This document shows, in pieces, positions 6,093 to 63,775 of a stretch of DNA of 64,000 bases; position 1 is the stretch's first letter; each line of letters opens with the position of its first letter. Source of the DNA: Euglena gracilis (lineage: Eukaryota); NCBI GenBank assembly GCA_039621445.1, contig CP154954.1:5987693-6051692 (forward strand), in the 5' to 3' direction. Made by a program: the position numbers and the translations under genes. A model generated the notes under the pieces. The model made no database searches. It saw only the letters and a list, made by a program, of their open reading frames with translations, and had not been told where the DNA came from.

Positions 6093-6825
6093 CAGGGCTG
6101 GGGGAGTTAGCCAGCCCAAAGTTTCCAGCCTCTGAGCTGGACCTGGGGGGGGATTAACCCTCCCATTTGAGTGCACGTTTTTTTGACCGCATTTTCGGGT
6201 CCTCAGGGGGGCGAAACTATTAGCCACTGCCTGAAATCAGTTCAGTGCGAACTGATTTTATTGCGGTGGGGGCGTTTTCGGGCTTCGTTTTTCGGGTGCT
6301 CACAGGTCTGACAAGACACCATTTGGGCACCGCGCATTGAAATGGGGAGGGCAGGGCTGTATTGGAATCCCAACCCTGTGCGCCTCGTGGGCGGGGTCGA
6401 CCCCCTCCCCACCGGGGGTGGGTCGACCCTCTCCACCCACCACACCACCCGCACAAATCCTTTCGGCGGTGAAGATTTTGACCCAAAAATCGGTGCTCGT
6501 GGAAATACGGGAAAGCCTGGAGGGGGAGGTTAGACCTTCCCCACCCACCACCCATAGGGTTGTGCCTCCCCATTTCAATGCGCGGTGCCCAAATGGTGTC
6601 GTGTCACACCTGTGAGCACCCGAAAAACGAAGCCCGAAAACGCCCCCACCGCAATAAAATCAGTTCACACTGAACTGATTTCAGGCAGTGGCTAATAATT
6701 TCGCCCCCCCTGAGGACCCGAAAATGCGGTCAAAAAAACGTGCACTCAAATGGGAGGGTTAATCCCCCCCCCAGGTCCAGCTCAGAGGCTGGAAACTTTG
6801 GGCTGGCTAACTCCCCCCTCCCCTG
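6093..6825. mobile_element. Foldback element with ~250-bp near-perfect inverted arms, CAG...CTG termini
   Basis: Arms ~6100-6350 and ~6565-6815 are reverse complements with few mismatches; ~210 bp spacer; no TSD seen. Confidence 0.8.
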
Positions 6826-12318: not shown

Positions 12319-13293
12319 CAGGATTTATCCTAATGGACAAAAATTGTCATACCTTTGGTGTCTGGAAATTGGTAAAAGTTAAAAAATCCAAAAAAATCCA
12401 AAAAAACGAATTCGGGCTATTTACACACTTTTTGGGGAGATTATTTTCCTTTCCTAAGAATGCCGGGGGGGGGGGGGGGGCCCTTATTTTTGGGGTCTGT
12501 CGTGGGATTTTTTTTTTTGCCAAAAGTTGGCATTTTGGGGGTTTAACTTTGTTCGGTCTTAAATTAAGTTCCTCAAAGAAATTGGGTGGGGGGGGGCAAG
12601 CATGCAACTGGTACCCCGAGGGCAGCCACCGCCGAACAGCCTGGGAGGGGCGGGGCCGCCGAAGAAGGGCCTCGGCATTCCGCCGCCACCGGCTTCGATG
12701 GAGGGGCCGGGGCCGACGAAAGTGCCCCCCAGGAAGGGGCCGGACCACTGCGGGCCGCTTGCCCCAGCCGGTGGGCGACCGCCGGGCTTGCGGCCTGGCG
12801 TTCCATCGTATATGGGAAAGCGGCGGGAAATTTGTTGGAAAATTGCGGAGAATTGCGGAAACTCGCAGAAAACTCGCGGGAAAAAATCGCGGAAATTGCG
12901 GAAAATTGCGGAGAATTGCAGAAGAATTGCGGAAAACATGCAGAACGAATTGCGGAAAATTGTGGAAAAATTGTGGATATCACCCCCCCCAGGTCCATAA
13001 CCCCCCCCAATTAGAAGCCCCCCGGGGCTACATTCGGTCACTCTGCGGAAAACCCGGGGGGGGGGGGGGGGGCTTCTAATTGGGTACCCTTTGTCTAAAG
13101 GAAAAACCTTCAGCCAGCGGCCAACCCCCCCCCCCGGCATTCTTAGGAAAGGAAAATAATCCCCCCAAAAAGTGTGTAAATAGCCCGAATTGGTTTTTTT
13201 GGATATTTTTTTTGGATTTTTTAACTTTTATCAATTTCCAGACACCAAAGGTAGCATTTGCATGACAATTTTTGTCCATTAGGATAAATCCTG
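12319..13293. repeat. ~160-bp inverted repeat pair (12319-12480 / 13126-13293)
   Basis: CAGGATTTATCCTAATGGACAAAAATTGTCAT...AAGAATGCCGGGG and its reverse complement. Confidence 0.85.
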
Positions 13294-31584: not shown

Positions 31585-34500
31585 TTACTCGCCGGGCGGA
31601 GGGAACACCTTGTCCTTGAAGGCGCCCCAGACAGGCTTCTTTTTAAGACCCCGGGGGGGGGAGGGGGGGTCCCCCCCCACCCACCCAGGGTGGCGCGGGA
31701 CCCCCCCCCGGGGGGGGGGGTCCGGTCCGGCCCGGACCCACCCACCCACCCCCCCTCCCCCCAGGGGGGGGGGTCTGCTGACTTAAAAAGAAGCCTGGCC
31801 CCAGAGCCCCGTCCAGCGAACCTCCCTCGGCTGCAGGGCGCCGGGCCAAACTGTCCGGCCAAGGGTCGAAGGACGCACGCCACCACCGACGCCAACGCCG
31901 ACGCCAACCCCGACGCCAACACCAACGTAAACGCCAACAACCACGCAAAAGGTCGGGGGAAAACGGCCCGAAAGCAACTGCCATGGGCAGAAAAAGTAAG
32001 GGTTGCAGGTGGACCGGTTGCGGAGGTTTCTTTCCCACTTGGGGGGTTCCAAAAAAAGGGCCAGAGTTGGGTGAAAGTTGGCTCTGCAGATCACGTTTTT
32101 TTCCCCATAACTTGTGCTGCTTTTTAGGTTCCTTTGCGCCCTTGATTTTCCGGATCACACTCATCAAACACAGTTCCTGCTTCAGGACCCCATAGAGGAT
32201 AAACAATCCCGGGGAAGCGGAAACGGGGCATGAGCAGGATCCCTGGCCAAAACAAAATCCAAAAACCGCATCTCTTTCATATGTCCCTCCCTGGACGGCC
32301 GTTTCCGCACTAAAGGCTTGTGACAAAGAACCCTCACCCCCCCCCGAAAAACATGGCGGGCGTGGCTGCCAGCGTTCGAAACCCCCAGGAAGGAATGGTG
32401 TGCACACATCACACTGTCCGACCGAGCGCACCTTTGCAAGTGGAGGCGCACCCCTCGTGCACGTGCCATCTGCACCCAATCGCGCGCATATGGGAAATTT
32501 CTGCAAAAATTGGCGAGTATTTCAGGGTTGGCCCCTGGGCTCCCAGTGTGGCCCAGAAACCCCCCAGAAAATGATCGACTGAAAACAAAAATTAAATTGC
32601 CAAAAATATACATTTAAAACATGTAAGGTATGAAAAAACTAAAGGAAATAGAGAGTAGAGCAGCCACAATACCTCCATTTGACTCCCAACTCCCCGAAAG
32701 CGTACTTTCAACTCTGCCAATTTGCTAAGGTGATTTTTTTAATGTTGGACCCCCGGGGGGAGAGGGGAGCAGGGTGGGTGGGTCCGCCGCAACCCCCCCC
32801 CCCCCCGGGGTGGTACCCGCAAGAGCCTTGTGGGTCCCCCGCTGGAGGCGGGACTTTGGCCCTAAATTCGGCGCCAAAATCGACCCAAAATTGACCCCAC
32901 CCTAAAATGGGCGACCATCCCCAGGTCTAAAAAAAAAATCCCTGGTGGATCCAGCTGGATTTGGGATTTGGTGCCAGTTTCTAGAAACGAGTCGAGCCCA
33001 GCCCAGGAGCTGGTGGGACCCACCCCTCTTGGGGGCAGCTCCTTTTTCCAGCTGGCTGGCTGGACCCCCCCCCCCGGGTCCTTAGGTTGTCCCCTGGTGA
33101 TGACTACAACATGAGTGTCACTCATTCCTCGTCACCTTGGGGCACGGCGAAGTTGGGGTAGCCCGGCGCACCTGGGCTGAGGTTTAAAAAAATTCTTTGA
33201 GAATTCTTTTTTGGAGTTTTCCCTTCTCCGGCTGAAAAATGCCAACCCAGCTGCATTCGGGCGTTTCCCCCATTTTTCTGTGTACCCTCCAGATCCAGCT
33301 GGCAGCCAGTTGGACCCCAACTGGACCCCTTTTCATTTTTGTCCACCAAAGAAAATTCTTGTGCACACCAAAGATTTCAGGTTCACCAGCCATTTGCGAA
33401 CGCACCGAATGAGCGTTGGCCAAGTTGTGACCCCAAAGGCATTATTTTGGGGGTGCCAGCCCCCCCCCCCCCTCGTTTGGATGTGACCAAATTTGAAGAC
33501 TGTGGATAGAAAATATGAAAATTCTTCAATTTCAGAGTTCATGAAAACTCATTTCTTGGTCATTCCCCAAACTCCAGAATGACCCAGAACAGGCTTGTGC
33601 TTGGGGGGTAGGGTTGTTGGGGGTGCCTGCCCATAGCAGGCACCCCCCCCCCCCGACCCCGGCGCCGAAGGCACCGGGGGCCGGAAAAGGCCATTTTCAA
33701 TTTTCAATGAAAATTTTCTGGTCCCCCCCTAACCCCCCCCCCCGGAGGTGTGTGGCTGTTAGGGAGCACCCCCCCCCCCGGTCGGTCCCGGGGGGGGGGT
33801 CAGATGGGGTGCTATGGGGTGCCTGCCCTAGCACCCCCCCCCCCCCGTGGGGTAGGCACCCGACTAAGCACAAGCCTGACTCAGAACCCCCCTCCACGAC
33901 TCAGTTGGTGCCTGCCTCCAAGCGCCTTCGGCGCCGAGGCTGAATTCTTCTAAGTCGTTTGGTCAGCCAGCCCCAGCAGTTCTTATAACCAACGTGTTTG
34001 TGAGTGTGTTGCAAGTGGGGGGTTGGACGCTTTTCGCCCAATAGTTGTGTCAGACCGTGTGTGTTAATGCACCGGATCTGTCCACTCCATGAGCTGGGGT
34101 TTGGGGTTTTTAGGCGGCGATGCAGACACGACAAACACTGTCGAGGGGTCCACGCCGCCTTTACGCCGCGGGTGCAGAGACAAGAAGCAGCGGTCGAAGG
34201 AATTCAGTTCGCACGGCAGGTGACAGAAACAAAATCCCTTCCCCGTCCGTGTTGGAAACCTGGGCCAAAGTCTGCCATTCGGTAGGGATTCCCTCAGTTT
34301 CGTGCTGAAGACGCCATGTCGCCATTCGTGATTCTTCGTGTTTTTTTTCGCGACTTTTCGTGATCTTTTTGTGACTTTTCGCGACTTTTCGAGATCTTTT
34401 TGTGACTTTTCGCGATTTTCGTGATTTCTTTTGTGACTTCGCTATTTTTCGTGATTTTTCGTGATTTTTCAGGATTTTCTATGGCACGAAACTGAGGCAA

Positions 34501-37500
34501 TCCCTGCTTTCAGCACCCAACTGCGCACACATCTGTGCGCCGGTGGAATTGACTTCGAACGCCCTCTTCACACTCCATCCCACCACACCCTGCCCGGCTG
34601 CTCCATCGATGCAGCGTCCCCCACGCTGGACCGCGGGGTGATGGTGTTGGCTGGGGCTGGAGCGGGGGCCGCAGCAGGACCGTTGCCGGCAGGCTGGGGT
34701 TGGGGTTCCCGGGGGAAGGGTCTCTGTCGGGGTGCCCAGGAAAGCACTTCCCTGTGGGTTCCCTGGAGGAGAAATTCCCTGACAAAGTCCAGACTGTGCA
34801 CATTTTGTCAGGAACAGACTTAGAAAAAATCACCACCTTGGGGAAAACTCCCATCATGCAACAAAACGATGCCTTGCAGTTTTTCTTTACATACAAATCA
34901 AAAATTCTGGAAAATAACACCCGAGAAAGGGGTTCAAATTTTTTGAAAAAAAGGACTTAAACCCCCTTAATTTTTTAAAAAAATTTCTGCCTCAAAAAAT
35001 AATATGGTCCAGGGGGGACAGGAGGAAATTCGCCCACTCAGCTGAACTTTTCTGGACTTCCAGAGGGAGGGAGGGCCCTGGGGGGGGGGACTTTCCAACA
35101 TGACAAAAAAAGTCAGCCGCAAGGGCCCATAGTGACAGCCGGGGGGGGGGTGCAGGGCTCTACGGGAAATCCTGGTGGGGGGCGACCCTCCCACCCGGAG
35201 GTGGGGGTGGGTGGGTGGGCTGACCCTCCCCCCCACCCACCCGGGCACCGCCCAAATAAAATTCCTTTGGCGCCGAAGGCAGAAAATGTTGACCTAAAAA
35301 TCGGCGCCCCCAAGGAAGGGGTGGGGGGGGGTCGGACCCCCCCACCCTCCCTCCCGTACAGCCAGAGCTCTGCCCCCATAGAGAGGTTGGCCGCACCGTC
35401 ACACCCGCCTGGTCGCTGGCCTGCCGCCGCCGCATCACGATGCAGTCCTCCTCCATCAGGTATGGCAGGTTGTCCGGGTCGTGTTCTGGTGCGTCCTCCA
35501 CCGTGGGCAGGGCCCCCTTTTGGGGGGCGGAAGGCACGGGTCCACTGTTGATGTGGACGAATCAGCACCCCTTGTGTCTTTTCCTGTCTTTGAAATGCTG
35601 TACTGTTTTGAATCTGTGTCGTTGTGCTCCCATTTTAATGGAGCCAGAAAACAGCCAGAATTTTGGTTCTGCCCCCCCCCCCCTACCTACAGTCTCCAAG
35701 GTTGCCAGGCTCCCGCTGCTGCCGACCTGTCAGGGGGGGGGGTCTAAGATTTCTTATCTGTTGCCTGTCCATCAGTTTTGTTTCATCGGAATGGGGGTGC
35801 TGGGCGGGAGAGAGTTTCCTGGGTTGCGCAGTAGCAGGGCATTTCCAAAGACTTTGACTCTGAAAAATTGGGAGGTGCTGGGATGATACTCTGACTTTTT
35901 CCCGGGCAGGACTGTGACAAATTCTCGGGCATGAAAATCTCTCGTACGGGTGGCATAAGTAAGTAAAAGTAATAAATGTTAAACTGTTAAACTGCTAAAT
36001 AGGATAGATTGACAGATCTTCTGTGCGACAGAATAACATCTGTCGGCAATGAAATCACACGCTCCAATCTGATGCCTGGGACCTGGCACCAACACTTTGT
36101 TGTTCAACTTGTTTCAGGCGATTTGCACCAAAAAAAAAGAAAAAAATAGACTCCTTCAGGCATTGATACTCCCCTTGAGAAGAAGGGAATAGGGTCTGAC
36201 ATGCCGATGTTAAAGCAAAGGGGGGGGAATGCCTGAGCAGGTGTCACAGGGCTGGGGGACACCCTTCTACACTCTGAAACAGTGGTGTGTCAAAATCCGT
36301 TGATTCAATTGTTTGGCCTGGCGCAAAGCGCTTGGCGCACAAAAAAAAACACCAAATTTTAACGTTTCTCTCTTTTGGGAAAAACATGTTAAAACCAAAG
36401 TATTCCTAGAGTGAAGCTTTGTGGGAAAAATCCTCAACCTTTTTTCTGGGTTCTAGAAAGCCCCAAGTCCGTCCGGAACCTCCACACCCATGGGTGGGGA
36501 CCCACCTTGAAACCCAGACACCAAACTGAGGTCGAGCATGGAGGGAGGGCTCAAATAACGCGACGCAAACATAATCATACAAAAACAAATAAAGACGCAC
36601 TCCCACCCCCCGAGTTGAGCCTCCTCAAGCTGCTCCTCCAGGCTGTAGCCCTAGATGGGCGATCAGGACATCCTCAGGTTCAGTCAGGCACCGACGTAAA
36701 AGGAGGCGCTGGCTCCCGAGAACACGGTCTGCTTGACGCGGTCCAGCAGCTCCGTGGTGGAGCCGTTGGTGCCGTCCGTCATGGCCTGGACGAGGGGCTC
36801 CACAAGGCGACCCACCTGTTGGGGAGGTCATAAAAACAATAATAAAATACAACGATCACTAAGAGAGGAGAATGTGTGCGTCTTTCCCGCTTCCCCGTGG
36901 TTTCTGCTTCGGCCTATTCTTCTTCGGAGGCAAGGTGCAGCAGCAGCAGGGTTGCCCTCGTGTTTTCCCGCTGTGGGCTGACCAGGGTTCATTGAAGGAG
37001 TAAGGCCAGGGTTCGGAGGTGCTAACCCTGACCCTGAACCTAAAACCTTTTTTTGTGTTTTTGGGTGACTTTTTGGACAAAATTTTGGCCAGGGTTTTAC
37101 TAACTTCCAACCACATTTCAGCCTAAACACATGCTAAAACACTAACCCCAACCGTGTTCCTAACATACCCATAACCATAACCTGGCGCTTAGGCTTAACA
37201 GACTTAAGCAGACTCCATCTGGCAGCCTGGGATCAGGGTTCGATATAAGGACAGGTGGGGGGGGGTGGTCCGGACCCCCCCCTGCGGGCCAGGAGGGGGG
37301 GGGGTGGGGGGGACACCCCCCCCACCTAAACAGGTGCGCAGTCAGGGTGGCCGAAAATTTTTGACCCCCCAAAACGACCAAAAGTGCCATTTTGGGCACT
37401 TTTTGGGCAAAAATGTGCCAAAAATGCAAAAAATTTTCGGCGCGAAGCGCCGGAGGAAAAAATTGACCCTTTTTGGGGGGGGGGGTCCCGGGAACCCCCC

Positions 37501-40500
37501 CGAGGGTCGGTCCGGACCCCCCTGGCAGGTGGGGGGGGGGGTGGTCCGGACCCCCCCCCCTGCGGGCCAGGAGGGAGGACACCCCCCCACCTAAACCATG
37601 TACGCCCTCCTTATATCAAACCCTGTTTGGGATACTGTCGACAAACGCTCCCCGAAAAGCACCTACTCTCGAGCCGGTAGAAAGGCCCAGAGTGACCCCT
37701 ATGCAATCTTGGCGAGCTGGTGCTCGACATGCTTTTCAGCGTTGTTCTGCGCATCCCGCTCTTCTGAATGGGGGTGGAATTTTCGCTCTAAAACCCACCC
37801 CAAGCGTCCGGCAGTGTACAGGGGTGGGACCCTGCAGAAGACAGGAGACGTGTCCACAGCCGACGATGCGCCAATCAATCCCTGCGGTATGCCCTCTGCC
37901 CATACGGGATCGATCAGGTCTCACGGGATTCAAACCCACCGCCTCCAGCGTGTGAGACTGGTACCCCAGCGGAACAAGCTACCCGGGCGATACTCGCCTT
38001 GGTGTACGCAGTGTTAGTGTTAGTGTGTCGCAGGCTCTCCCTCCGCCGCACACAAGACGACGTGACTAGACCTGGGCCAGGTGCCCGGCGGCCTTGTAGC
38101 GCCGGAACTCGTTGGCCACCTCCTCCCGCTCCATCAGCACGTCGTTCAGCCGCTCCATCACCTTTGCCACCCGGAAGGCGCCTCGCGATACCTCCCCACC
38201 GAGACCTTCTTATTTCATTAAAACCCCCGTTCAGGGCCTTAAGTGCAGAAACCATTGCTTCCATCACAAAAGACTTTTTGGCCAAGCAAGGGGTGCCCCC
38301 CAGGTGTGGGGGCCCACTCCACCAGAGGAGCAGAGATTGGTTTACTCAAAAAATTGGGCCTTTCTGCCCAAGAAGTTTGTGAAATTGGCCAGTGGAGGGG
38401 GGTGGAGGCTTCTACAGCCCACTATCAAAGACGTGGTGCTCAAGGAGCCTTGGAAAATGCCCCTCCCGGGTAACCACCACAATGGTAAACCCGCCCCCCC
38501 CCCCCCTAATAGAAGCGCCGGGCCGTACAAGCGCAGAGTCCAAATAAAAGCGCACCCCCTGCCCGCCTGCCGCTGAAGGCGTCGGTCCGCTACAAGCGCA
38601 CCCCCCATTTTGATGGTATTTCGAAAGGAAACCAACAAAAATTGGGCACGAAAGGTCCAAATAGAAGCGCACCCTTGGCCGCCAGAGGCGGCAATCCGCG
38701 ATAAGCACACCCGCGCTTCTATTAGGGAGGGTGTGTTTACTTTGAAAAGAAAATTAAGACCCAAAATTTTTTTCGGAACAGGGTTCCGGGTGGTGGTGGG
38801 GGGTGCACAGCTGTTTTTAGGACCTGGAGAGGGGGGTCTGCACGCACCCACCCACCCCCAGGGGGGGGGCTTGGGGACCCACCTCTGGGGGGTCAATTTT
38901 GGCCCCCCCCCCAAAAAACAGGAAAACCCTGCCTCTTTGGTGGAATGGAGTCTTCTCTGGCTTGAGCGCCGCCCGGGTCTCAATGTTGGCGGACATGGTC
39001 GCGTTCTGCTCCAGTAACTTCTCATTGGGTGACGACCGATGCCCATTGGCGGGGGGGGGGGAGAAATGCTTAGGCCCGCCCTGGAAAAAATGTGCGAAAA
39101 TGCGCAAAAATGCGCAAAAAATGGGCATGTTCAAAGTCCGAGGAAAAAAAATCAAAAATCATGAAAATGCAAGCAATTATCCAAAAACATCAAAATTACA
39201 AATGTTGTATGGAATTATGAGGAAATTGTTCGTACAAAAATTCGAAAAAGCAACGAAAATACACAAAAATGCGAACGATTTTTTCAAAAATGCGTATTTT
39301 TGAAAAATCGAAAAAAATGTGCAAAACTTGTGCAAAAATTCGAAAGGCTGCCGTTAGTCCAATGCCAAGTGGGGAAATTAGTCCTTCGCAGCACAAAGCC
39401 TCTGCATAGCGCTTTGTTTATGAACGCAAAGCATAATTTTTTTTTGATCGAACCTCTATTTTTGTGCGCGAAATTGTGTACAATTAGCTAAAATTGCTCT
39501 AAGGTGAATGCAGAAGTGCTCAGATTAAGCTGGGTATCGTGCTTGTAATTGACCTATTGAAATACCTCCCTGAACAATATTCCGCCAAACAATGTTTGTT
39601 CTCCCTGGAATCGAATTCAGCAGCCCAAAATAACATTCCCCCCTGATTTCTTCACCTGCGAGATGGAACCATATTTTTGCAAGTTTTACATGATTTCCAC
39701 CATGTCAAAAATGGAAAAGAAATTTGACAAATGGCAAATTTCTCAAACAAACATTGCACCTCCCATGAATTTTGAAATTAGGGGTCATCTTCCAAATTAG
39801 AGGTTTCCAGTACAAATGATTGAATCTTTGACCTTCGGTTAGGAATCATCTCTAAATTGGCGCCATTTCTATTCAAATCATGGAATAAATGGTGAACACT
39901 TTCGAAAAAAAAACGTGGAGGCTTCGGGCTCAGTTTGGAGGCCTCGGACAGAAATATGGACAAAAATTTGGCGGGATTTCATTCCGCCAATTTCGCCGTA
40001 AGTCCCATTCCTGTAAACGTGCAGAGGGGGTGCCACACATAAATAGCGAAGTCTCACCACAGCGCCGCACAGAGGCAAGGATCGCTGCGGTGCGCTCCAG
40101 AGCACGAACGTGTGCAGCGGCGGAGCTAACACACGGCAAACGATGCATCGGGTTTGTCGGGACACTTCACTGCAACGTGGGAAGGAAGCCAGACCGTTAC
40201 CACAAAACGAATGCGCTTTCTTCCTTTAATTCAATAAACCTCTCTTTAAACAAAGGCAATGCCAAAATCCCTCTAAGCAAACTCCTCAACCGCCACATTG
40301 GAAAAGAGAACATGATTATGAAACCATAAAAGCAATTCCAAAGTTTCAGAGGCATCAGCCAAATTCACACAATCGGAATTGAAACTGTAAGAACCATCCG
40401 AGTCTGTCGCAGGGGTTGTGCCTTTTTTGTAATATAGAAATACAACTGTGCGACACACGCGAATGGTTCTCCTGGCGAATGGTTGGGGACTAATGCACGA

Positions 40501-51379: not shown

Positions 51380-51908
51380 CAGGGATGGATGGGAAGCCTT
51401 GAGGGGGGTGGGTCGGACCCCCCCCTCCCGACACGGAGGGGGGGGGGGGGTCGGACCCCCCCCTCCTACCTCGAAACTGAGGGGGGGCCGAAATTTTTTC
51501 GATTTCATGGATGGGCAAAGGGCCGGAAATTGGGTCGGAATCTGTCAAAAAACCCTGATTTTTCTTTGAAAATCGATCCAAAAATGCTCATTTTTTGAAT
51601 TTTTTTGAACATGTTTTTGGGGGAAAACACCAACACATCAAAAAATGGGCAATATGACCAAAAGTCAGCAAAAGGGGTGTTTTTTGCTCATTTTCCGGCG
51701 CGCAGCGCCAGAAGAAAATTTTCTGCTATTTTTGGCACCTGTCAAGGAGGGGGGGGTGGGGGGGTGCGGAAACCCACTCCCAACATCTAGGGGGGGGGGG
51801 GGGTCCGGACCCCGCCCCTCCCACCTACCCCCCCCGGGGGGGGGGGGGGGGGTCGGGACCCCCCCCTACCACCTACCTCAATACCGAAGGGCTTCCCATC
51901 CATCCCTG
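51380..51908. mobile_element. 529-bp hAT-like MITE with perfect TIR and TSD
   Basis: 19-bp perfect TIR CAGGGATGGATGGGAAGCC; perfect TSD GTCAGACA at 51372-51379 and 51909-51916. Confidence 0.92.
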
Positions 51909-52581: not shown

Positions 52582-52783
52582 TCAGCGCTTCTTCCGCTTC
52601 TTCTTCTCCTTGGACTTCTTGGCCTTCTTCTTCTCCTTGCGGCGCTTCTTCTTCGCCCGCCGCTTGCGGTCGCCACTGCTGGAGGAGCTGCTGGACTCGG
52701 TCCATTCGCCACTGCAGGGCACGCGCGCGCACACACACATACACACACGCGCGCGCACGCACGCACACACACGCACGCGCGCG

Positions 52784-52826
<43 letters not shown>

Positions 52827-55800
52827 CTCGTTGTTGCTTTTCAGTTAGGGGGGGGGGTGTCCAGGGGTCCCCCAATTGGTGGGGGGGGGGCGCACATTGG
52901 AAGTCAGGTTTTAATGAGTTTCTGAGAGGTTTGTATATTATATATTTATTTTGTTTCAGAAAACCCAAAAAAGCCAAAAAAAAACGAGCATTATTGGCAG
53001 GCTTTGCCCTACCCCCTGCCCAAAGCACCCACCCCCGCAGGGGGTGTGAATTCCCTTAAAAGAAGCCTGTTGAGGGTCCAAAAAAAACTTTCACTTCGTT
53101 CAGGTCAGCGGGAGAATTCTCCATGATAGCGATTATTGTCACACCCCCATTGTCTTCGACACCCAGAATTGTGCATCACCCATCCCAACCCCGACAAGCT
53201 CCCACAACAGTCGAACGTACCTTCCCCACCCGGCCTACCCATAACAACCGTGCGACCATCATTAAAAAAAAAAGCACCCACCTTCTGCTAGCTAGTGCTG
53301 CTCAGCAGACCCCCCCCTCCTGTGGGGGGGGGGTCCACTGGATTCTCCACTGGCCATTGTTTGCACTAGCTGCAGTCAAGCCCCCCCCCCCCCTGGAGGT
53401 TCAGCAACCCTTATTGAGAAACCTGCCCACCATAGAGACCATATATAGAGTTTCCAGAAGTCGCATTCAACCCTGCGAGGGGGGGCCAACCGGGTGGGGC
53501 CAAGCTGCCTTCAACAGCCCAGGGGCCAACGGGGGGGGGGGGGGTCAGCAGTGGCCTGCTTAGATGCAGAGCTGGAGCTGGAACCGGAGCTGCGGCGGCG
53601 CTTCTTGGCCTTGTCCGCCTTCTTGCGGCGCGCTGCGCCGCTGCTGGCAGGGCCGCCCGGGCGGGGGGGGGGGGGTGGCTGTGCGCCGAGTGCGTAGACC
53701 CCAGGTGGTCATCCTTGCATCGCCCAATTCCATGTAGGGAAGGCGTGGTGGGGGGGGGGGGCGACGCTTCAAGCTGCCACCCATAGAGTTTCCGGGACAA
53801 GCCATTGCTTAAGGACCCCCCCCCCCCGGGGGGGGGGTAGGGGGTCTGGACCAATAACCACGTCACTCTGAAAAATCACTCACCCACCCTCCCCAGGGGG
53901 ATCGGCCAGTGACGAAGTGATTGTATGTTCTGGGATCGAGAACGCCTCTGCTAGCTCTCACTGCTCCCATCATCCGAGCTGCTGCTGCTGCTGCTCCGTC
54001 GTCAGCCTCAGAAGGGTGGGTTCTAGTGCGGCAAGACGAGGCTTCTCAGCTTTTTACAGGTGTACCGGTGGATCGACTTTTACCTATACTTTCTGGTTTT
54101 TTTGCAGATGGTGAAAAATTCCACCAAAATAAAAAAAATTATCTGATGTGTGGTACAAAATCTTGGTTCGATAATCTGGATTGATTCAATGTTTAAGATA
54201 CAAATGTGGGTGTGGGTGTGTGTGTGTGTGTGGGTGTGCATGTGTGCAGGCGCGCGTGCATGTGTGTGCGTGCGTGTGTGTGCGCGCGTGTATGTGCAAA
54301 TGTGTGTGTGTGTGCGCGCGCGCGCGTGTGTGTGCGTGCGTGCGCATGTGTGCAGTGTATACTCAAAGCCAGGCCTATTGCAGTTGACGTGGATACTCTT
54401 CTGCAAATTGTCACCAAAGGGTTGGGTACCACAGACCAAGATGACAAGTTCAGGGTCTGAGAAAAACAACCTCTCGTGTGACAGAAAATCTTCACCCCCT
54501 TGGCTGGATAATTTGACACCAAAAAAAATTCAAACCCACATTTTACGCAGTTGCCGTTTCTTTAGCCTTCAGTTCATACAAAAGTTGAATTTTATTGTAG
54601 TGTTTTTGTTGAGGCAAAAATGAACATTCCCATGAGAAATATCAAAATATAAGATATAATAACATAAAACACAAAACATCTATACTAAAACTAATAAAAT
54701 ACTAAAATATCAAAAATATACAAGACATCTGCAACCCTCATGCTTGCCGCCTTCTTCCGCCCCCCCCGCTACCCTTTTTTAAATTCAATCCAGGCTTTTC
54801 CTCCCCCCCCCCTACTGCTTCAGAGGCACCCCCAAGGAGTTGGCCAAAAATACCGTCCCCCCCCCCAATTTTTGAATTATTTGGCTGCCGGAACCCAGGT
54901 TCTGGCTGAATTCAGGGACCGAAAGACAAGTGGAACCTCGGGGCCCAATGCGTCTGGGGCGTCTGAGGCAGCAGACCGGGCCCCGGTCCCCACCCCACCG
55001 CCCTGGCCGCTTCAGGGGCTCCGGGATGAACACCACCTCCGTGCCGTCCGCGTCGTCGGGGACCGCCGCCCGGGGCGGCGGAGCCGGGGGCGAGGGCGGG
55101 CGGCGGGGGCACGGCTGCATGTTGGCCAGGGGGGGGGGGGGCTGGTTCAAAAAAATATTCCGCCGCCTATCCTGGCCCTTGTACGAGAAGGCCCAGTGGG
55201 GTGGGGGTCGACCCCCACACCATAGATTCACTTACTGACCCGGGGGGGGGGGGGCTTTTTCCCGGGCCTTGGAGGGATGGGGTCCCCCACCCCCAACGAG
55301 GCCTTCCCAAATTTCTGGGGGTGCCGACTGTTAGGTCAACGTTTTCCTTGTGTGGTGCTGTGCTGGGTGTGTGGCATAGATTCATAGAAAGATGGATGGA
55401 CAGGCTACCAAATGGGACTTTGCAAGGGGCGATTCCTTCGGCGCCACCGTAAAACTGGGAAGCAGTGGGTGACCCCCCCCAACCCCACCACCAGATGGGA
55501 CCCCCCTCCACCGCCACCCACCGGAAATCCAAACGTGCGATTCCGCCTCCTCCCTCCCGCTATGGGGGCGGGGAGGCCCCCGTCCTCCTCCTCCTCCTCG
55601 GCCTCTCTCTCCACACAGGCAGCCCTGGGCGGGGGGCGTAGTACTGCTCGTCACGCTGGAACTGGGCCCCCCCGCGGCCCCGGAGCCCGTCGAGGGTGGG
55701 CCCCTGCCAAGCCGGCGTTCCGCGGCGTTGGCCCACTGTTTCGTGGTGGAGGTTGACCCTCCGGGGCAGAGGGAAAACACACCCGGCAATGAGGGGGAGG

Positions 55801-58800
55801 ATGACGTTTGGACGGGGCTGGCGCGGCGCAGTAACCCGCAGCTGGTTTCTCAAAACTCTTGCAGCGGCTCCGCAGCACTCCAGCAGCTGTCCCTTGACAG
55901 CATTGTTTCCATTAAAAGTGGTCCGCACCCACCCACCCACCCACCACCCCTGGGGGTACCCGGGGGAGGGCTTGGGGGGACCACTTTTGGGGGTCAAATT
56001 TGGGGTCAAAAAAAAAATTGCGCTTCGAAACCCCCCCCTCCAGCGGGCTACCACTCGGCCAGAACAGGGGAGAAACTGCACATGGGCCAGTCAAAAACTG
56101 CACTGCAAAAACTGCAAAAAACTGCACTTCAACAAAAAAAATTGACAATAAAAAAGCTGAAATGGTGTGCATATGCAAAACAACGGAAAACTGCGACCAC
56201 ATGAGCACGCCCCAATTCACCTAACTTTTTTGCACAGCTTTGGAGCTGATGAAGACAAAGGGGATGCCCACCCCGCAGTGCCGGCACTGCGTGGCACTGC
56301 GTGGCACTGCGTGCACTGCGTGGCACTGCGGGCCGTTAAACCCTTGTTTTTGCATCATTGGCATTTCTGGGCCATCAAGGGCAATTCTGGTTGTTTTGTG
56401 CAACTTTTTGCCTTTTTGGGCCAATTTGACTGCTTCTGGCTAGAAATGTCGAAAAATGACCAAAAAGATGCCTGAAAAGCGTTACATCATTGAAGGTTAT
56501 TGTATGCGGGTTGAACGGCCCGCAGTGCCACGCAGTGCCACGCGGTGCCACGCAGTGCCACGCAGTGCGGGTGGGCATCCCCAAAAAATGGAAGCAGTCC
56601 ATCAAGGTACACTGTACACGGTATTTCATACACTGAAATGCAAGTCATGTGTTTGGATGCCGGGTCACACCGACCATGCCCACAAGGATGCCAAATGGTT
56701 TCCTTCTAAATATGGAAAAGATGCACATAAACCCATTCGCAGAAATATTCGATGCTTTCATTCTTGCAGGGATGTTCAATTTGGAACTTTCGGTCCATTG
56801 AGTGGTGTGACATGGGATGAGCATTGGAATGGCATGGCAATGCAAAGAAAACATCATCGCAACATGCTTTCGTTCGACTGGGTTGTTTTATTTAGAGGAG
56901 AGGTCAGACGATGAAGAGGAGGAGGAGGAGGAGGAGGAGGACGGGAAATTGTATGTTACTGTTGAACGAAATGTACTCGCAAGCAACCTTCATCTGGCAC
57001 ATCGACGTTGAGTCTGCCTTTTCCTTTAGACATACCCTTCGCACGTCGCTTTGTGCCTTTGTTGGCTCGCTTGAGCCTGAAGCATGCACGCCGAGCACTG
57101 AACTGTTGTGCTGCTCAACAACGTCAGAACTCAAACGTAACCGACGATATGCCAAAATCATCCTCAGACTAATGAATTCAGACTTGACAACTGCATCATA
57201 CGGTGTCATAGCAAGGCATGCGCAAAAAAATACACATCAGGTATTGGGGTGGAACGAAGATGTCGGTTACCTGTTGTAATTTGCGCACTCCTTTGACGAC
57301 TGCCCTCACAACCTTCAACATTGTTCAAACCTCCTACAATGCAAAGGTTGGAGAGGGAGCAATTTTGGTTGGGGAGTAATTGTGGCCTTGTCGCCAAAAC
57401 AGCAAGCACCAAAAAATAAACATGTTAGGTTTCCTCAAAACTGGATCAACAAAAAACTGCAAAACAACCTGCAAAAAACCCAAAACGTGAAAACTGCAAA
57501 AAAAACAAACTGCAAAAAAACTTCACGTTGCAGATTTTCCACCTCCCTGACTCCAACCCCCTGGTGGGGGGGGAGGGGCGGACCCACCCACGCCCCCATC
57601 CCCCCCCCTGCCTTGACGTCTCAATCGTGTCCATGTGCCGGCATAATCTGCGCACTGGTCTGCAAAGGAAACGAAGCAAAAGTTTTAAATAAATTTACAA
57701 AATCGTTGCTGCTCGCGGTGCTGGCAGCCACCCAATCGGGACGGGGGTTGGCCTTCTCCTCAACATCACTATCAAGAACACAGGCCCCCCTCCAGCGACC
57801 ATGTTGGAGGTAGGTAGTCAGGCCGACCCCCGCAGGCATTATGACCTTTTAAGCCACCTTAAAAAACCTTAAAATGCCCCAAAATGCCTTCAAATACCTT
57901 AAAAAAAAATCGGACCAGCAGAATTTTCTCTGAAAGAGCAAAAAACAAACCCGGCAAAGTTCCAGCCAACAAAAAACAGCCCAACTCGGGGAAGAAAAAT
58001 GATTTTCGGTATCAATAGAACATTATCTATCCAAACTGAACTCAAAATTCCCAGCCGTCCCAGCCGTCCAGGGGGCACCGACCTGTTAAAACCCTTCTGC
58101 GTCAGTGACACCGTGGGACCAGGGCGTTTTTTAAACGACCCCCCCCCCTCCCCCGGGGTCAGCTCAGAGGCTGGAAATTTTGGGCTGGCTGGAAAAAGGC
58201 TGCTGGCTGACCCCCCCCCCCGGGCTGGAGCTGGACCCAACCTGGGGCCAAACTGGGTCCCAAAAGATCGAGAGTGCAAAACCGTTCAAAAAAAACTGCC
58301 AAATATGCAAAAAAAACAACAAATGTTTCAACGTTTTTTTCAATTTTTTGACCCCAAATATTTCCTGGCCAGGCCATATCTTTCCCTTTTTTTTCCATTT
58401 TCGTCCCATTTTTGTACCATTTTTGAACCCCCAAAAGCGAAAACCCGTTGCTGTCCAGCTGCCCAAAGGGTGGCTGGAAAGATAAATAAATCTCATTGGG
58501 GGGGGGGGACCCGAGATGGAAAAAGACGGCGATGACAGCCCCCGCCCCGGGGGGTGGGGTCAAATTTTCTTAAGCTGCACCCGCCGTGGGACGTGCGGCC
58601 GAAAGGGGGGGCCTGGGCCGCGTCGGGGGCCTTCTCCTCCTCGCTCGAGACGCTGCTGGTGCTGCTGGGCATCTCCCACCGCTCCGGCATCGCCCTCCCT
58701 GACGACTCCGCCGCCCGGTCCGGCCCCGACGGCCGCATGTGGTTGGGGGGAGGCCGCCGCCGGGACCCCCGGGCGGTACGGGAAGGCCGGGTGGGGGTGG

Positions 58801-59537
58801 GACGGTCGACCCCACGATGGCGCCGGGCACGGAATCCGCATTTGTGGCCTAGAAACCCCGGGTCACAGGAAGGGGTGGTGGGGGACTGGCCCTGCCCACC
58901 CATCCACCCACCCACCAGGATGGGGGGGGGGGGTAGGCCCACCCGCCACGCATTGGGTTTTCCCAGCAGGGACCCATAGCCCCAAAGTGGCGGCTGAAAC
59001 GGACTGGGGTGGGAAGAAGTCACAGCGTCTTGCCTTCTCTGCGGGGCGAGGCGCCATGAAGAACTGAGCTTAAATAACCTGCAAGCATCACAGGTGGAGA
59101 CCTGTGATTTCATAATTGTGCGTGAATGAGTATAAGTAACGCATGAAATCATTATGAATTTTTTTTAATTTATATTTTGAAAAAAAAAATGAAAATGATA
59201 AATTGAGTGAGTAATAATGAAATATGTAATAATAATATAATAGTAAAAACAATATATACAATAATAATAACAAGAACAAGAACAACACCAACAATAATAG
59301 TTGCAATTGTAATTGTTATTGTAATTGAAATTGTGATCGTGATCGCGATCGCGATCGTGATCGTGATCATGATCGTAATCATAATCATTATCATAATTGT
59401 AATCATAATCAGAATCAGAATCAGAATCAGAATCAGAATCAGAATCAGAATCAGAATCAGAATCAGAATCAGAATCAGAATCAGAATCAGAATCAGAATC
59501 AGAATCAGAATCATAACAACAGCAACAACAACAACAA

Positions 59538-59568
<31 letters not shown>

Positions 59569-61538
59569 AAGAAGAAGAAGAAGAAGAAGAAGAAGAAGAA
59601 GAAGAAGAAGAAGAAGAAGAAGAAGAAGAAGAAGAAGAAGAAGAAAAAGAAGAAAAAGAAGAAGTATAAACAGCTTGCAAACTTGCAGAGGAAGTGACTT
59701 TAGGGCTTGGAATGTTAATTGGAAATACAAAGCAAACACCAGCGGCCAGTCTATCCGGGCGCCGGCCTCACCGCGGCACTGGAACGTGAGGTGGCCTGTG
59801 GCGCCGCAGCGCTTGCACGTCCCCTTCGTAGCCGCCACCTGCCCCGCCCAGGGGTTTTCTTACGGACCTGGGGGGGGGGGGGTCCCATGGGCCAGCTGGA
59901 AGAAGGAGTTGGCTGGACCCCCCCTGGGGGTGGGGGTCCAGTGGGGGGGGTCCAGCCAGCTGGAAGCTGGACCCGGCAGGTATCCCAAAAAAAAAAGCCA
60001 AAAAAGCCGAAAGCCAGCTGGGTTTGAATTTTTCAGCCAAAATTTGGAGGAAAAACCCCAAACCCACCCAAAAACGCCATTTCCCACCATTTATCATTTT
60101 TCAAGCATTTTTCTGGCTTCTTCGCCGGCTGGCCTGAACTTTCTGTCAGCGGACCCCCGGGGGGGGGGGGGGGGGCTGGGAGGTGCTGGCTGGAAAAAAG
60201 GTGCTGGCTCCCGGGGGGGTAGGGTCCCCTCCAGCTTTAGAAAACCCCTGGCCCCGCCGCCGCGGCGTGTGTCTTCGCCAGGCTGAGCAGCCCCTTGTGG
60301 TGCCAGGGCGGAGGGGCCCCAGGCTGGGGAGGGGGGACAACAATGACAGGAAAAAAAATGACGGGGAAAATGACGGGAAAAATTGACAGAAAAAAAGGAC
60401 TGGAAAAAACCATATGAAAAAAAAAATGGCAAGAAAAAAGACGGGAGAAACTGATGGAAAAAAACTGACGGAAAAAAACTGATGGGAAAAAATGACAGGA
60501 AGAAAAGATGCGAAGAAATGACGAGAAATACTGGATGGATCTTTGTTTCCCGTCATCTTTGTTTCCCGTCATCTTTGCCCAGACACACTTCAAAAACGTT
60601 TCCACACACAACGTCACCCACCAACGAGTCATCCAATGAATCATCTAGTGGATCAGTGGCACAAAGCAAAAGATGGTAAATTGGCAGTAATCAAACATAA
60701 ATCATCAGGTTGGTTCAGGTTTGATAAAAGGGCAGGTGGGGGACACCCCCCCCCACCTAAACAGTGGCACGGTCTGGGAGTCGCTGATTTTGGCCCAGCA
60801 CCAAGCGCCAGACCGAAAATTTTTGCCCACCAAAAACGGCCATTTTGGGCAATTTTTGGGCAAAAATTTGTCAAAAAATGCAAAACAAAAAAAAAAAGGC
60901 GCAAAGCGCCAGAAGGAAAAGTTGACCTTTGGGGGGGGGTCCCGGTTACCCCCCCCCCCCGGTCGGTCCAGACCCCTCTTGGCAGGTGGGCCCCTCCGGT
61001 CCAGGAGGGCCCGTGTAAACCCCGAACACCCTCCTTATATCAAACCCTGGTCGGGTTGCAGGTTGTTTAAAAATCGGACTTCAAAATGCGTTGCACCGTC
61101 CCCTTTTTCTGAACATCCATCCCCAACTGTCCTCAAATTCTATGACAACCCATTTCAATTATCCTCCCCCCACCTCCCCACCTGGGGTAACTGTCCTCAA
61201 TGAGAGACTGCCCTGGAACAATTGTACTTAACAACATGACCTGCGTGTCCTTCCGAAGGGTGGTCACAAGGGTGACAAAAATTTAGGTTTATGCGGGATT
61301 CCATCCTGTCGAAATGAAAGTGGGAAAGGTAGGCTGGGTTGCGTGCCAAAAAAGGGACACTCGCACATTCCGACCGGCCCCGCCCTGCGCACGTGTCGTA
61401 GGCACTGCTGCCCGCGGCCTGGCCCTCCGCGGCGGGCTTCGCGGTGGCGCCCATCGTCTGCCACACCGCGTCGCCCCCGCTGGCGGAGGACATGTCGAGG
61501 TAGTTGTTGCGCCAGAAGTCCGGGGCGTACTTCGGCAT
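52582..61538 (-). CDS. CCHC zinc-knuckle protein, CAX-interacting protein 4 (CXIP4)/SREK1IP1-like, with Ser/Lys-rich tail
   Basis: Exons 61391-61538, 60254-60298, 59773-59843, ~58619-58744 join to ...AVWQTMG...AYDTYKGLLSLAKTH...KGTCKRCGATGHLTFQCRNH. Approximate later exons: ~57710-57776, ~55555-55740, ~55005-55120, ~53950-54050, ~53562-53695, 52582-52712 (SSSSGDRKRRAKKKRRKEKKK...*). Confidence 0.8.
56260..56582. mobile_element. Inverted-terminus element with subterminal (GGCACTGCGT)n repeats
   Basis: GGGGATGCCCACCC / GGGTGGGCATCCCC with ~80-bp inverted arms; architecture like 26632-27280. Confidence 0.7.
58120..58584. mobile_element. hAT-like MITE nested inside an intron
   Basis: Perfect 8-bp flanking repeat CGTGGGAC (58112-58119, 58585-58592); degenerate right TIR; interior homologous to 7946-8319. 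Confidence 0.75.
59407..59664. repeat. Compound microsatellite (AGAATC)n + (AAG)n
   Basis: Tandem arrays at 59407-59512 and 59539-59664. Confidence 0.97.
59849..60250. mobile_element. 402-bp hAT-like MITE forming intron 2 (59844-60253) of the CXIP4-like gene
   Basis: 12-bp perfect TIR CAGGGGTTTTCT; perfect TSD GCCCCGCC at 59841-59848 and 60251-60258; removal restores AKTHAAAAGQVAATKGTCKRC. Confidence 0.92.
60716..61049. mobile_element. MITE of the CAGGGTTCGATATAA family, degenerate
   Basis: CAGGTTTGATAAAAGG ... CCTTATATCAAACCCTG; flanks match 5/8. Confidence 0.65.
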
Positions 61539-61568
61539 GGCGCCCGGGGGAGGGGGAGGGGTGCCTGC

Positions 61569-61599
<31 letters not shown>

Positions 61600-63599
61600 G
61601 GGGGGGCGGGAAGGGGTGGGGGAGTGAGTACTGCGCCTGCTGGGACTGGAGGACACTTTTCAACTCTTTTTTTTTTCAGGAACAAAATCTTGAATTGCCG
61701 TGTTTTTTAAATTAGAATAGGGAACAGGAGAGAGTCAGAGGTAATGCAACGGTTTTTCACAGACTCAATTGCCGCAGCCCATATGGGGCCCAGGAAATGG
61801 GTCTTTTGTCACGTTTAACTTTTAATGATTCATCGTGTGCAAGTATTCACATAATTGCAGCAAATCCATCAGCTGAATGCGCAAAGGAATCACTGGCGCA
61901 ATCGTGGAAAACCTCCACTTTGTTCCCGCTGTTGTGCAAGTAGTCCTGTGCCAGGCTCCTTTTAAAGGAAGTTCACCCCCAGGGGTGGATGCTGTGGGCA
62001 GGTAGGGGGGGCAGGACACTTTCGACCCCCGGAGGGGTCAGGTTTTTGGGGTGTTTCTGTTATTGAGCCCACGGCGCGGGGGCCTGAAAATGGTCATTTT
62101 CAAGGGAAAATTGGAAAGTTGGTAAGCACCGGGACACAACGCCGAGCTCCGGAGGTTGGGGGTTTCTGTGGGACGGCAACCCATGGCACAAGGCTACCCC
62201 CCCTCTCCCCCAGGTTGGAAAAAAGAAGCCTGCCGTATGCGCATTTGAGCGAATAGTCCCTTTGCGCGATTGTGCAACCAACATTTTAAGTCGAAGTCAA
62301 TGGTATCGTCCAGCGCTCGGTCTCACCTGCCCCAAATCGCTCCGGCAACTCTCCCGAAACTAGGTTGCTCGTTATGGATTTGCGTCTTGTAAACCCCGCA
62401 GGTGCATATGCAAGTGTCTTGTCCATTGCCTCGGGTATCTGGTGCAACAACTGAGACACTTTTTTGACCAACTCAGATGTACTGTACAAACACTTCCACT
62501 TATGAACGCCACTCACAGAACGCCGCTCCCCACTAGGGTGTTTTTATCGACCCCCCCGCTCACAGAGGTTCCAGCTCAGAGGCTGGAACATCTGGCTGAC
62601 CCCCCTCCACCCCCCCCCAGGGGTCCGGGGTCCGGGGTCGAACCAGGTACCAAAAAGAATCGAAACTGCAAAAATGTCCAAAAAAACTGACAATTACTTC
62701 TCAGCCCTTTTCCAACCCATTTTCGCCCATTTTTGACCTATTTTGTGGTCAAAAATGTCGAAATTCCAGAGGAGCATTGAATCTTCTCGATAAAACCCCA
62801 TCAGGGTCGAACACCAAGCCGCACTCTGTAACAATGAGGGAGTTGTAAGTGGGGCAGGATTTGACACACTGAAATCCAGACTTTCCTGGATTCTGTAGTC
62901 TTCCTTATTCTGCAGTTAGCTGTGCAGATTATTCAAAGGCCATTGTTTTCTTTCTTTCACGGTTTGGGAGACACAGTGGAGTGCAACTGAGGACATTTCA
63001 TCCGTCGGGGGAATTTTTTCCACGCAAAACATATTACTGGCAATGCAGACTCCCCAGCAACGGTTGAAGAATACACCCATGTTCAACTCCGCACTTCAGG
63101 CAGCAATGAATTATGAGAGCCCTAACTTGCCGCAAACCAAGAACACAATTGAGCACGTGAACCCTTGCTGGTGCCCACTGGAGCCAGTGTGATTGGGTCG
63201 CAGAGGATTTGTGCCAACGGCGCACCCGTCGCAGGGCAGGAGGCTGTGTTGGCCGGAACACAGGATTGGCAAACAGGAGGCAATTACTGCCATTCGCCCC
63301 CCCCCCCCCGACACCATGGACATGGTAGAGATATCTAGATAGACAGAGCATGGACATGGCCATGCTCAGGCCGTGGCTTGGCGTGTACCGGCCCAAATGC
63401 CTGCCCAACACCCTCCCCGTGTCTCGCCACGGCTACACTGTACACCGCACTGATGCTCGCGCAGTCCCCTGCCCTGCCACGCTCCATCCGCCAATGGACT
63501 GTGGGGGGAGGGCAGCCCACAGCTCTTGGATGGCACGCGGAGCTGCAGTGGCAAGCGGAAGCCGGCGGACCGCACTGGTCAGTGAGAGGGCAGGGGAGG

Positions 63600-63775
63600 T
63601 CAGAAGGCCAGGGCGGTGGCGAGGGTCACGCCGGCGGCGGTGTGGCCGGCGAACAGCCGCTGCAACCCGTCCTCCGTCCCAAGCCGGTACTCCCGCTCCT
63701 CGGGGGGCACCGCCCGGCCTGGGGCATGCCCATCCCGCCAGGCTGCACGCTGTTGGCCCCAAGACGGAGTGCATG
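63600..63775 (-). CDS. Probable terminal exon of a gene entering from the right edge
   Basis: GC-rich frame QQRAAWRDGHAPGRAVPPEEREYRLGTEDGLQRLFAGHTAAGVTLATALAF* followed by UTR-like sequence; no product recognised. Confidence 0.4.

Follow-up and report, generated by a model that had tools for sequence, protein, structure and literature searches.

We describe a 402-bp non-coding element in a 64,000-nucleotide stretch of Euglena gracilis DNA (assembly GCA_039621445.1, contig CP154954.1, positions 5,987,693 to 6,051,692; hereafter the window, numbered from its first letter) that interrupts the coding sequence of an expressed CCHC zinc-knuckle gene and that, together with exactly one copy of the 8-nt repeat flanking it, is missing from the mature mRNA. 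We consider it probable, though with no more than moderate confidence, that this is an insertion of a MITE, a miniature transposable element with inverted repeats, mobilized by a hAT-type transposase into a coding exon and removed from the transcript, along with one duplicate of its target site, by means of the cis-acting code of euglenid nonconventional introns. An earlier note made from the letters of this DNA had arrived at such an interpretation; its core holds at this locus, and both the hAT label and the generality that it claimed are plausible.

A 402-bp inverted-repeat element is flanked by an exact 8-bp duplication

The element occupies positions 59849-60250 and begins with a 12-nt terminal inverted repeat (TIR) that reads CAGGGGTTTTCT on the plus strand (59849-59860), while its partner on the minus strand (60239-60250) reads AGAAAACCCCTG on the plus strand and is the exact reverse complement of CAGGGGTTTTCT. 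The two TIRs are separated by 378 nt, and the element carries internal G-run/C-run palindromes and is also rich in GCTGGCTGG motifs. Abutting it on either side are the two copies of a target-site duplication (TSD) of 8 bp, at 59841-59848 and 60251-60258, which read GCCCCGCC on the plus strand and GGCGGGGC on the coding strand; neither the element nor the copies are assigned a strand. The duplication is exact and cannot be extended, and the same is true of the elements that start at 51380 and 31632, described below. A repeat search lists a 13-nt rather than a 12-nt arm at 59849, in which the last C and the first G of the flanking copies pair by chance. Short length, a 12-nt TIR and an 8-bp TSD together make up the anatomy of a MITE, and direct reading of the sequence confirms the anatomical observation at 59841-60258 that had been made previously, namely a 402-bp insert with a perfect 12-nt TIR and a perfect 8-bp flanking repeat.

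The mature mRNA lacks the element and one copy of the duplication

The host is a minus-strand gene of ten coding exons that extends from 61538 to a stop codon at 52585, as delimited by tblastn and an exhaustive junction search with P0002 (EukProt EG_transcript_22677, 272 amino acids, Pfam PF13917, zf-CCHC_3), to which the translation of exon 1 is 98% identical. We take the prefix of EG_transcript_22677 to be the Euglena gracilis label, and the zinc knuckle, CKRCGATGHLTFQC, which lies directly downstream of the insert on the coding strand, presumably resembles that of SREK1IP1-type proteins. Three minus-strand exons surround the site: exon 1 as seen in RNA (61391-61553, with the ATG at 61538-61536), exon 2 (60251-60298, 48 nt, YKGLLSLAKTHAAAAG), to which one duplication copy is assigned and whose junction with intron 1 has a unique solution, and exon 3 (59773-59840, 68 nt, QVAATKGTCKRCGATGHLTFQCR), which encodes the CCHC zinc knuckle and is backed by P0002, by PF13917 and by an RNA-type contig with no differences. 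The minus-strand reading frames at 60237-60644 and 59170-59859 are offset by 2, which equals 410 mod 3; with 402 + 8 nt lost, ...KTHAAAAG therefore runs on in frame into QVAATKGTCKRCGATGHLTFQCR. Counted from the ATG at 61538, the 148 + 48 + 68 nt of these exons amount to 264 nt, or 88 codons, and reach the zinc-knuckle frame.

Sequencing data were compared with the window at a likeness of 88, so as to catch family copies, with the microsatellites at 59200-59664 left out; they comprise a DNA run (X1), contigs labelled "RNA?" (X15) and two sets of raw RNA reads (X21 and X24). Across the site, P0002 reads ...THAAAAGQVAATKGTCKRCG..., ...YDTYKGLLSLAKTHAAAAGQVAATKGTCKRCGATGHLTFQCRNHMRPSG... and ...KTHAAAAGQVAATKGTCKRCG..., such that exon 2 is joined to exon 3 and one copy of the 8-mer is kept. 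In line with this, letters 31-193 of X15 record 9 (437 nt, depth 61) lie on 61553-61391 and are followed by 48 letters, after which letters 242-309 lie on 59840-59773 with 0 differences and are followed in turn by 128 letters of exon 4; X15 contig 10 stops precisely at 60298, and the stretch 60298-60251 measures 48 nt. The junction between exons 3 and 4 is found in seven raw X24 reads, in addition to one X15 contig, and at 59773 those reads share 30 loose letters that, once reverse complemented, equal 58744-58715, where exon 4 begins. The host gene is thus expressed and its introns are removed at sites other than GT-AG. Because the P0002 sequence and the 48 + 68 letters of X15 agree, a mature mRNA without the element and without exactly one 8-nt copy is supported.

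Intron 2 fits the cis-acting code of nonconventional introns

The intron that contains the element, intron 2, can be drawn in nine equivalent registers (60258..59849 to 60250..59841), all of which yield the same mRNA. From first to last these start with GG, GC, CG, GG, GG, GG, GC, CC and CA and end with TG, GG, GG, GC, CG, GG, GG, GG and GC, so that none of the nine has the GT/GC-AG borders of a spliceosomal introner. Together with the frame offset, these registers bear out the prior claims that a GT donor is lacking and that removal of the element plus 8 nt restores the frame. The nonconventional code, as defined in PMC12501133, consists of CAG and CTG with adjacent pairing, where a spacer of 3 nt precedes CAG, one of 5(-6) nt follows CTG and the next exon opens with a purine; it derives from knock-in tests in E. 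gracilis, in which it was sufficient even for synthetic 50-bp introns, and the spacers are described there as "random flanking spacers". Among the nine registers, which are indistinguishable as to the real cut, that at 60253..59844 (minus strand, 59844-60253, 410 nt) reads GGC + CAG...CTG + GGCGG, placing CAG at +4..+6 and CTG at -8..-6 with spacers of 3 nt and 5 nt, and the next exon starts with a purine, G at 59843 on the coding strand. The intron ends pair as a 12-nt perfect inverted repeat, and this terminal stem is present in both the minimum free energy and the centroid fold; the fold of the whole intron is not significant (z = -1.05), which leaves the terminal stem alone as meaningful.

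Since the 3-nt and 5-nt spacers are experimentally defined (PMC12501133), the arithmetic by which the earlier note had equated their sum with the 8-bp duplication is sound, and it suggests how such an intron could arise. A high-copy, non-autonomous, MITE-like cut-and-paste element, most likely mobilized by a hAT-type transposase, would have landed in a coding exon of the CCHC zinc-knuckle gene and duplicated 8 bp of its target (GGCGGGGC on the coding strand). As the element starts with CAG, ends with CTG and has ends that pair, the transcript would carry the cis-code of nonconventional splicing, and one cut would be expected 3 nt before CAG and the other 5 nt after CTG, followed by a purine. 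The upstream duplicate would supply the 3 nt from its end and the downstream duplicate the 5 nt from its start, so that the element plus 8 nt would be removed and the pre-insertion frame exactly restored. Given the symmetric ends, orientation should not matter, what is required being a purine as the sixth nucleotide of the duplication, read on the sense strand; this nucleotide is G in both intron 2 and intron 6. We infer both the insertion by transposition and the splicing of the element-bearing allele itself.

The arms of the element are highly repeated

When summed over contigs, the X1 depth in the three bins that cover the element is 25,722, 46,745 and 204,477, against about 86 beside it and about 71-95 at eight single-copy contigs; the element thus stands at 300-2400 times the single-copy level, a ratio of summed contig depth and not a copy number. 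At position 59863, which lies 15 nt in from the left end, the window has C; A is carried instead by 91 X1 contigs, which account for 42,956 of 44,420 depth, and by seven X15 contigs. From the excess in X1 depth and these 91 contigs, the arms of the element appear to belong to a repeated family. The X1 peak at 60175-60209 corresponds to a sub-repeat that is more widely shared among element families.

Extreme summed X1 depth (up to 234,066, compared with about 85 at single-copy level) is also a feature of short segments elsewhere, the full set being 60175-60209, 60680-60969 and 62565-62854; these are sub-repeats with G-run/TCCGGAC/C-run or GCTGGCTGG motifs, common to several element families and nested within introns.

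The window contains further CAGG-ended elements with 8-bp duplications

Three elements in the window, at 59849, 51380 and 31632, combine a 10-nt perfect TIR with an abutting perfect 8-nt direct repeat that is not of low complexity (arms 50-3000 bp apart, with an array at 500-1800 excluded), and all three start with CAGG. One hundred block shuffles of the sequence gave a mean of 0.02 such elements and a maximum of 1, with 2 of the 100 containing at least one. A survey of inverted repeats that match at 11 or more of 12 positions, lie 50-3000 bp apart outside 500-1800 and are not of low complexity returned 1,295 pairs, of which the 32 starting with CAG have top identities of 8, 8, 8, 7 and 6 between their 8-nt flanks, whereas among the other 1,263 pairs none reaches 8/8 and three reach 7/8. 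A separate maximal-repeat filter dropped the 51380 element, owing to a chance outer match, and intron 6, owing to low complexity; both losses were technical.

The 529-bp element at 51380-51908 has a 19-nt TIR, CAGGGATGGATGGGAAGCC, and an exact 8-bp TSD, GTCAGACA; since it is situated downstream of the host gene's stop codon (52585), the architecture is not confined to coding sequence. The 166-bp element at 31632-31797 has a 16-nt TIR, CAGGCTTCTTTTTAAG, and an exact 8-bp TSD, GCCCCAGA, and its family has six termini in the window. Two less perfect elements are the 289-bp element at 33590-33878, with TIR CAGGCTTGTGCT matching at 12/12 and flanks ACCCAGAA and ACTCAGAA matching at 7/8, and the 392-bp element at 37234-37625, with TIR CAGGGTTYGATATAAGG, flanks matching at 6/8 and three further family termini in the window. 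The CAGGGTTYGATATAAGG family has five termini in the window, one of which is nested in intron 1. As with the 402-bp element, no strand is assigned to any of these. We also considered the 31632 and 51380 elements as further introns and rejected this, as their flanks gave no convincing coding frame.

These data bear on whether a transposon was involved at all. An 8-nt repeat might instead stem from double-strand-break repair or from structural selection, with inverted ends that evolved in place, and break repair has been proposed in PMC4770533 for the 8-nt repeat at a new intron of the E. agilis gapC gene; that most older nonconventional introns of the host gene are without flank identity speaks in the same direction. 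We nonetheless regard an origin without a transposon as very improbable, given that the arms recur in at least 91 other X1 contigs, that the same architecture is found downstream of the stop codon at 51380-51908 and again at 31632-31797, that more than one terminus in the window belongs to each of several CAGG-ended families, and that chance would yield 0.02 of the perfect elements with abutting 8-nt repeats. Least probable of all, to the point of being hardly credible, is spread at the level of RNA, in which an excised circle would be reverse spliced and reverse transcribed. Nonconventional introns are reported to be excised as full-length circles, as cited in PMC11282704 and PMC12621601, and this speaks for it, but a reverse-spliced intron of 3 nt, element and 5 nt brings its own 8 nt, so that no exact match between exon flank and intron end is expected, and copies with duplications outside coding sequence would be left unexplained.

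A hAT-type transposase is the best guess for mobilization

The TIRs start with CAGGGGTT, CAGGGATG and CAGGCTTC, in agreement with the C/TAG start of hAT elements and comparable to the C/TAGGGATGAAA motif of Ac/Ds, a system that makes 8-bp TSDs (PMC3260210); of these starts, CAGGGATG belongs to the 51380 element, while the 402-bp element begins with CAGGG. The 8-bp duplication that also marks hAT elements is exact at 59849, 51380 and 31632 and present at 7/8 at 33590 and 6/8 at 37234. On the strength of the duplication and these terminal sequences, hAT is our best guess for the mobilizing transposase.

Several superfamilies make duplications of about 8 bp, and an origin of the same kind through a P-like, Mutator-like or Merlin rather than a hAT transposase is unlikely but still a serious candidate. 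No transposase was seen among the ORFs examined in the window, and the sole DNA transposons that we found reported for E. gracilis, in a literature search that returned no others, are two Merlin families with 8-bp TSDs (PMC8101967). The TIRs of all Merlin families, the new ones included, begin with GG according to the same source, yet in each of the three perfect elements CA stands exactly next to the duplication, and the start of the TIR matches the C/TAGGGATGAAA of Ac/Ds (PMC3260210). A Merlin origin in particular was rejected, as the elements begin with CA, the duplication abuts C and the GG-start rule of PMC8101967 is not obeyed.

Other introns of the host gene vary in their agreement with the duplication

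An exact 8-nt flanking repeat is found at two of the nine introns of the host gene. Besides intron 2 it occurs at intron 6 (55102-55635, minus strand), which contains a 518-bp insert, CAGGGCTGCCTG...GCAGCCGTG, with a TIR matching at 10/12 and the repeat CCCCCGCC adjoining CAGGGCTGC...GCAGCCGTG, and which likewise has nine equivalent registers. Intron 6 is the weaker example, its repeat being C-rich, of low complexity and situated in a proline-rich stretch. Nonconventional introns 1 (60299-61390) and 3 (58745-59772), both on the minus strand, read GCG|CAGGGCGG...CCGCCCTG|GCACC and GGT|GAGGCCGGCGCC...GGCGGCGGCCTC|CCCCC, respectively, and take a 3+5 register that is unambiguous or nearly so, intron 1 without being slidable and intron 3 with GAG/CTC in place. 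For introns 7 and 8, a 3+5 placement is possible among protein-equivalent options. Intron 1 also holds nested repeats, including a CAGGGTTTGATATAAGG terminus at 61033-61049.

Two side observations concern these introns. A decayed copy of the CAGGGTTYGATATAAGG family, on the minus strand at 60713-61049, is nested in intron 1, and its 8-nt flanks, AACCCGAC and AACCAACC, match by eye at 5/8, while its terminus was confirmed separately. Intron 3 contains long microsatellites at 59333-59664: a (GTGATC)n run, some 110 bp of (ATCAGA)n, and (AAG)42.

Evidence against the proposed origin and the question of an empty allele

A number of observations weigh against a hAT-mobilized insertion that is spliced out. 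With respect to the element, no second full copy exists in the 64-kb window (blastn; 20-nt terminal pattern with 3 mismatches), such that no sibling TSD is seen, and the depths that mark it as repeated are sums over contigs, which are not copy numbers. As for the transposase, none of 9 of the 65 window ORFs of at least 170 aa, searched with Pfam, contains a transposase domain, and no ORF in the window exceeds 359 aa. hAT transposases prefer the target nTnnnnAn, and the four exact duplications are unlike this preference. What stands of the previous hAT assignment is the 8-bp duplication and the Ac/Ds-like TIR start; a transposase domain did not appear among the ORFs searched.

Other points against it come from the remaining introns. 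Identity between the 8-nt flanks, judged by eye, is 1, 3, 2 and 3 of 8 in introns 1, 3, 7 and 8, which is chance level; intron 4 (57774-58618) has a perfect 10-bp CAG/CTG stem but spacers of 3+7; intron 9 (52699-53561) pairs GCCACTGC with GCAGTGGC, has no CAG/CTG at the canonical places and fits no 3+5 register; and intron 5 could not be placed owing to allelic differences. Decay of flank identity is to be expected, because the intronic halves of the duplication are said to be unconstrained (PMC12501133). Even so, a link between duplication and nonconventional introns in general is plausible rather than demonstrated by the host gene. The notion of a transposon-derived intron thus finds agreement in a non-GT-AG intron of an expressed gene, in the TIR/TSD anatomy, in the repeated arms and in the other CAGG elements, and disagreement in the four introns with flank identity at chance level.

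At the splice junction, too, some of the data tell against it. No raw RNA read spans 59840/60251 among the joints listed, which were 15 of 251 and mostly X1 repeat noise (for loose ends, 24 of 1,230 were listed in the read comparison). The 48 letters in X15 record 9 are identified by arithmetic, by the end of contig 10 and by P0002, and P0002 differs from the window at several residues, as would another allele or strain. Finally, an allele free of the element would give an identical mature mRNA. The element and one 8-nt copy are hence missing from the mRNA, in P0002 and X15 alike, as had been anticipated, while splicing and an element-free allele are indistinguishable from mRNA.

The element-bearing allele might accordingly be unspliced or poorly spliced, with the clean mRNA stemming from a never-inserted allele or paralogue. 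Aside from the identical mature product, the single-residue differences between P0002 and the window are compatible with this, as is the expression of two alleles at position 61481, where the window has T and 10 of 15 X21 reads have C, a letter also present in X1 and X15. Even so, we deem this explanation improbable: X1 contigs cross both junctions of the insert at single-copy depth (86.3 for 59665-59899 and 71.4 for 60224-60754), the contig at 60224-60754 represents a haplotype with 13 letters and 12 gaps different that still carries the right junction, and no empty-site joint appears among the 15 of 251 listed. The insert, furthermore, satisfies every element of a code that is sufficient in synthetic introns (PMC12501133). 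With regard to the same gene, P0001 represents exon 1 reading through into a diverged intron 1 and derives from another contig.

Comparison with known systems

Removal of a transposon from transcripts has a reported counterpart in maize, where Ds is said (Giroux 1994) to be taken out as a new intron, with use of the spliceosome and not of a CAG/CTG code. Ac/Ds resembles the 402-bp element in its 8-bp TSD, its short C/TAGGG TIR and the length of its non-autonomous Ds1, about 400 bp (PMC3260210). The introners of Micromonas, Aureococcus and others, as described through PMC11282704, share with it the removal of an exonic non-autonomous TIR/TSD element whose duplication gives part of the splice signal; these introners are spliceosomal, however, with GT/GC-AG borders and one site co-opted from a 3-nt TSD, whereas the cuts of intron 2 would be measured from the terminal stem. 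The Merlin elements of E. gracilis (PMC8101967) share the 8-bp duplication and differ by TIRs that start with GG.

With the nonconventional introns of euglenids, intron 2 shares the want of GT-AG borders, the pairing CAG/CTG, the 3/5 spacers and the purine (PMC12501133). That study left aside introns flanked by direct repeats, termed slidable, which make up 84.4% of E. agilis introns, whereas intron 2 has an exact 8-nt repeat around an insert of a repeated family. A MITE origin appears in its main text as a suggestion only, and the words hAT and duplication are absent from that text. The closest precedent is intron 4 of E. agilis gapC, a recent nonconventional intron confined to strain ACOI 323 which, like intron 2, has eight-nucleotide direct repeats at its junctions (PMC4770533, 2016); there the repeats are read as double-strand-break repair and, in the text consulted, are not tied to the duplication length of a transposon or to 3/5 spacers. 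The hypothesis of a MITE origin for nonconventional introns was set out in PMC3935182 (2014), which states that transposable elements were at that time still unidentified in euglenid genomes. Both this paper and a 2024 review (PMC11282704) read CAG at +4..+6 and CTG at -8..-6 as TIRs and the junction repeats as "TSD-like", and in the portions of the two that we drew on, neither a duplication length nor a superfamily is given.

Within the main texts searched, we found none that connects nonconventional introns with hAT or with 8-bp TSDs, nor duplication length with the spacers; supplements, Canaday 2001, Tessier 1995, Guminska 2021 and McWatters & Russell 2017 were outside this scope. As to the novelty that the earlier note had wondered about, the MITE origin, the TSD-like wording, the 8-nt repeat and the 3/5 rule are all in print, and it is the explicit 3+5=8 and hAT link that did not turn up in main texts. 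The locus is an unusually clean new instance that sharpens a known hypothesis, and not a new kind of system.

Implications for the origin of nonconventional introns

The origin and spread of euglenid nonconventional introns have posed a question since the 1990s; PMC12501133 calls their origin unclear, and PMC6221363 asks if the transposon theory is correct. This locus provides a concrete young case, an intact TIR/TSD element of a repeated family that interrupts a coding exon and does not appear in the mRNA, and the length of its duplication equals the sum of two spacers that were defined genetically in 2025. The loose "MITE-like" idea is thereby turned into sharp predictions: slide lengths and flank identities should both have a mode at 8, CAGG-ended families should also have copies between genes, an autonomous partner of hAT type should exist, and the junction of the circle should rebuild the target site.

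A broader reading, which we offer tentatively and regard as somewhat doubtful, is that the 3-nt and 5-nt rulers mirror the 8-bp staggered cut of a transposase, that the whole class (about 70% of E. agilis introns) descends from CAGG-ended hAT-like MITEs, and that the machinery for erasing exactly the element plus one duplication, in either orientation, arose by selection or by recruitment of a stem-measuring nuclease. Under this speculation, the 2-nt offset between the two cuts would resemble an RNase III-type stagger, exonic insertions would be nearly neutral and in the excised circle the 5 nt + 3 nt that meet at its junction would rebuild one full copy of the target site. If true, it would also explain the tolerance of massive intron gain in such genomes.

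Other features of the window

Outside the host gene, 63497-63702 is the terminal coding exon of another minus-strand gene (...EEREYRLGTEDGLQRLFAGHTAAGVTLATALAF*), and a 1,043-nt RNA-type contig and 16 raw reads continue beyond 63702 with letters that do not adjoin it in the window. An array of GC-rich palindromic units (GGTTGGGCCGCGGCCGGCCGCGGCCCAACC...) at 580-1710 is the source of many spurious matches that combine a TIR with a repeat, and an interstitial telomere-type (CCCTAA)n run of about 200 bp, well inside the window, lies at 699-946. Two further inverted repeats are not CAG/8-bp elements, namely one at 6177-6739 with 35-nt arms (41 nt with the palindromic GTGCAC) placed 563 bp apart, and a hairpin of about 1 kb at 12319-13293 with several nested perfect 12-nt arm pairs.

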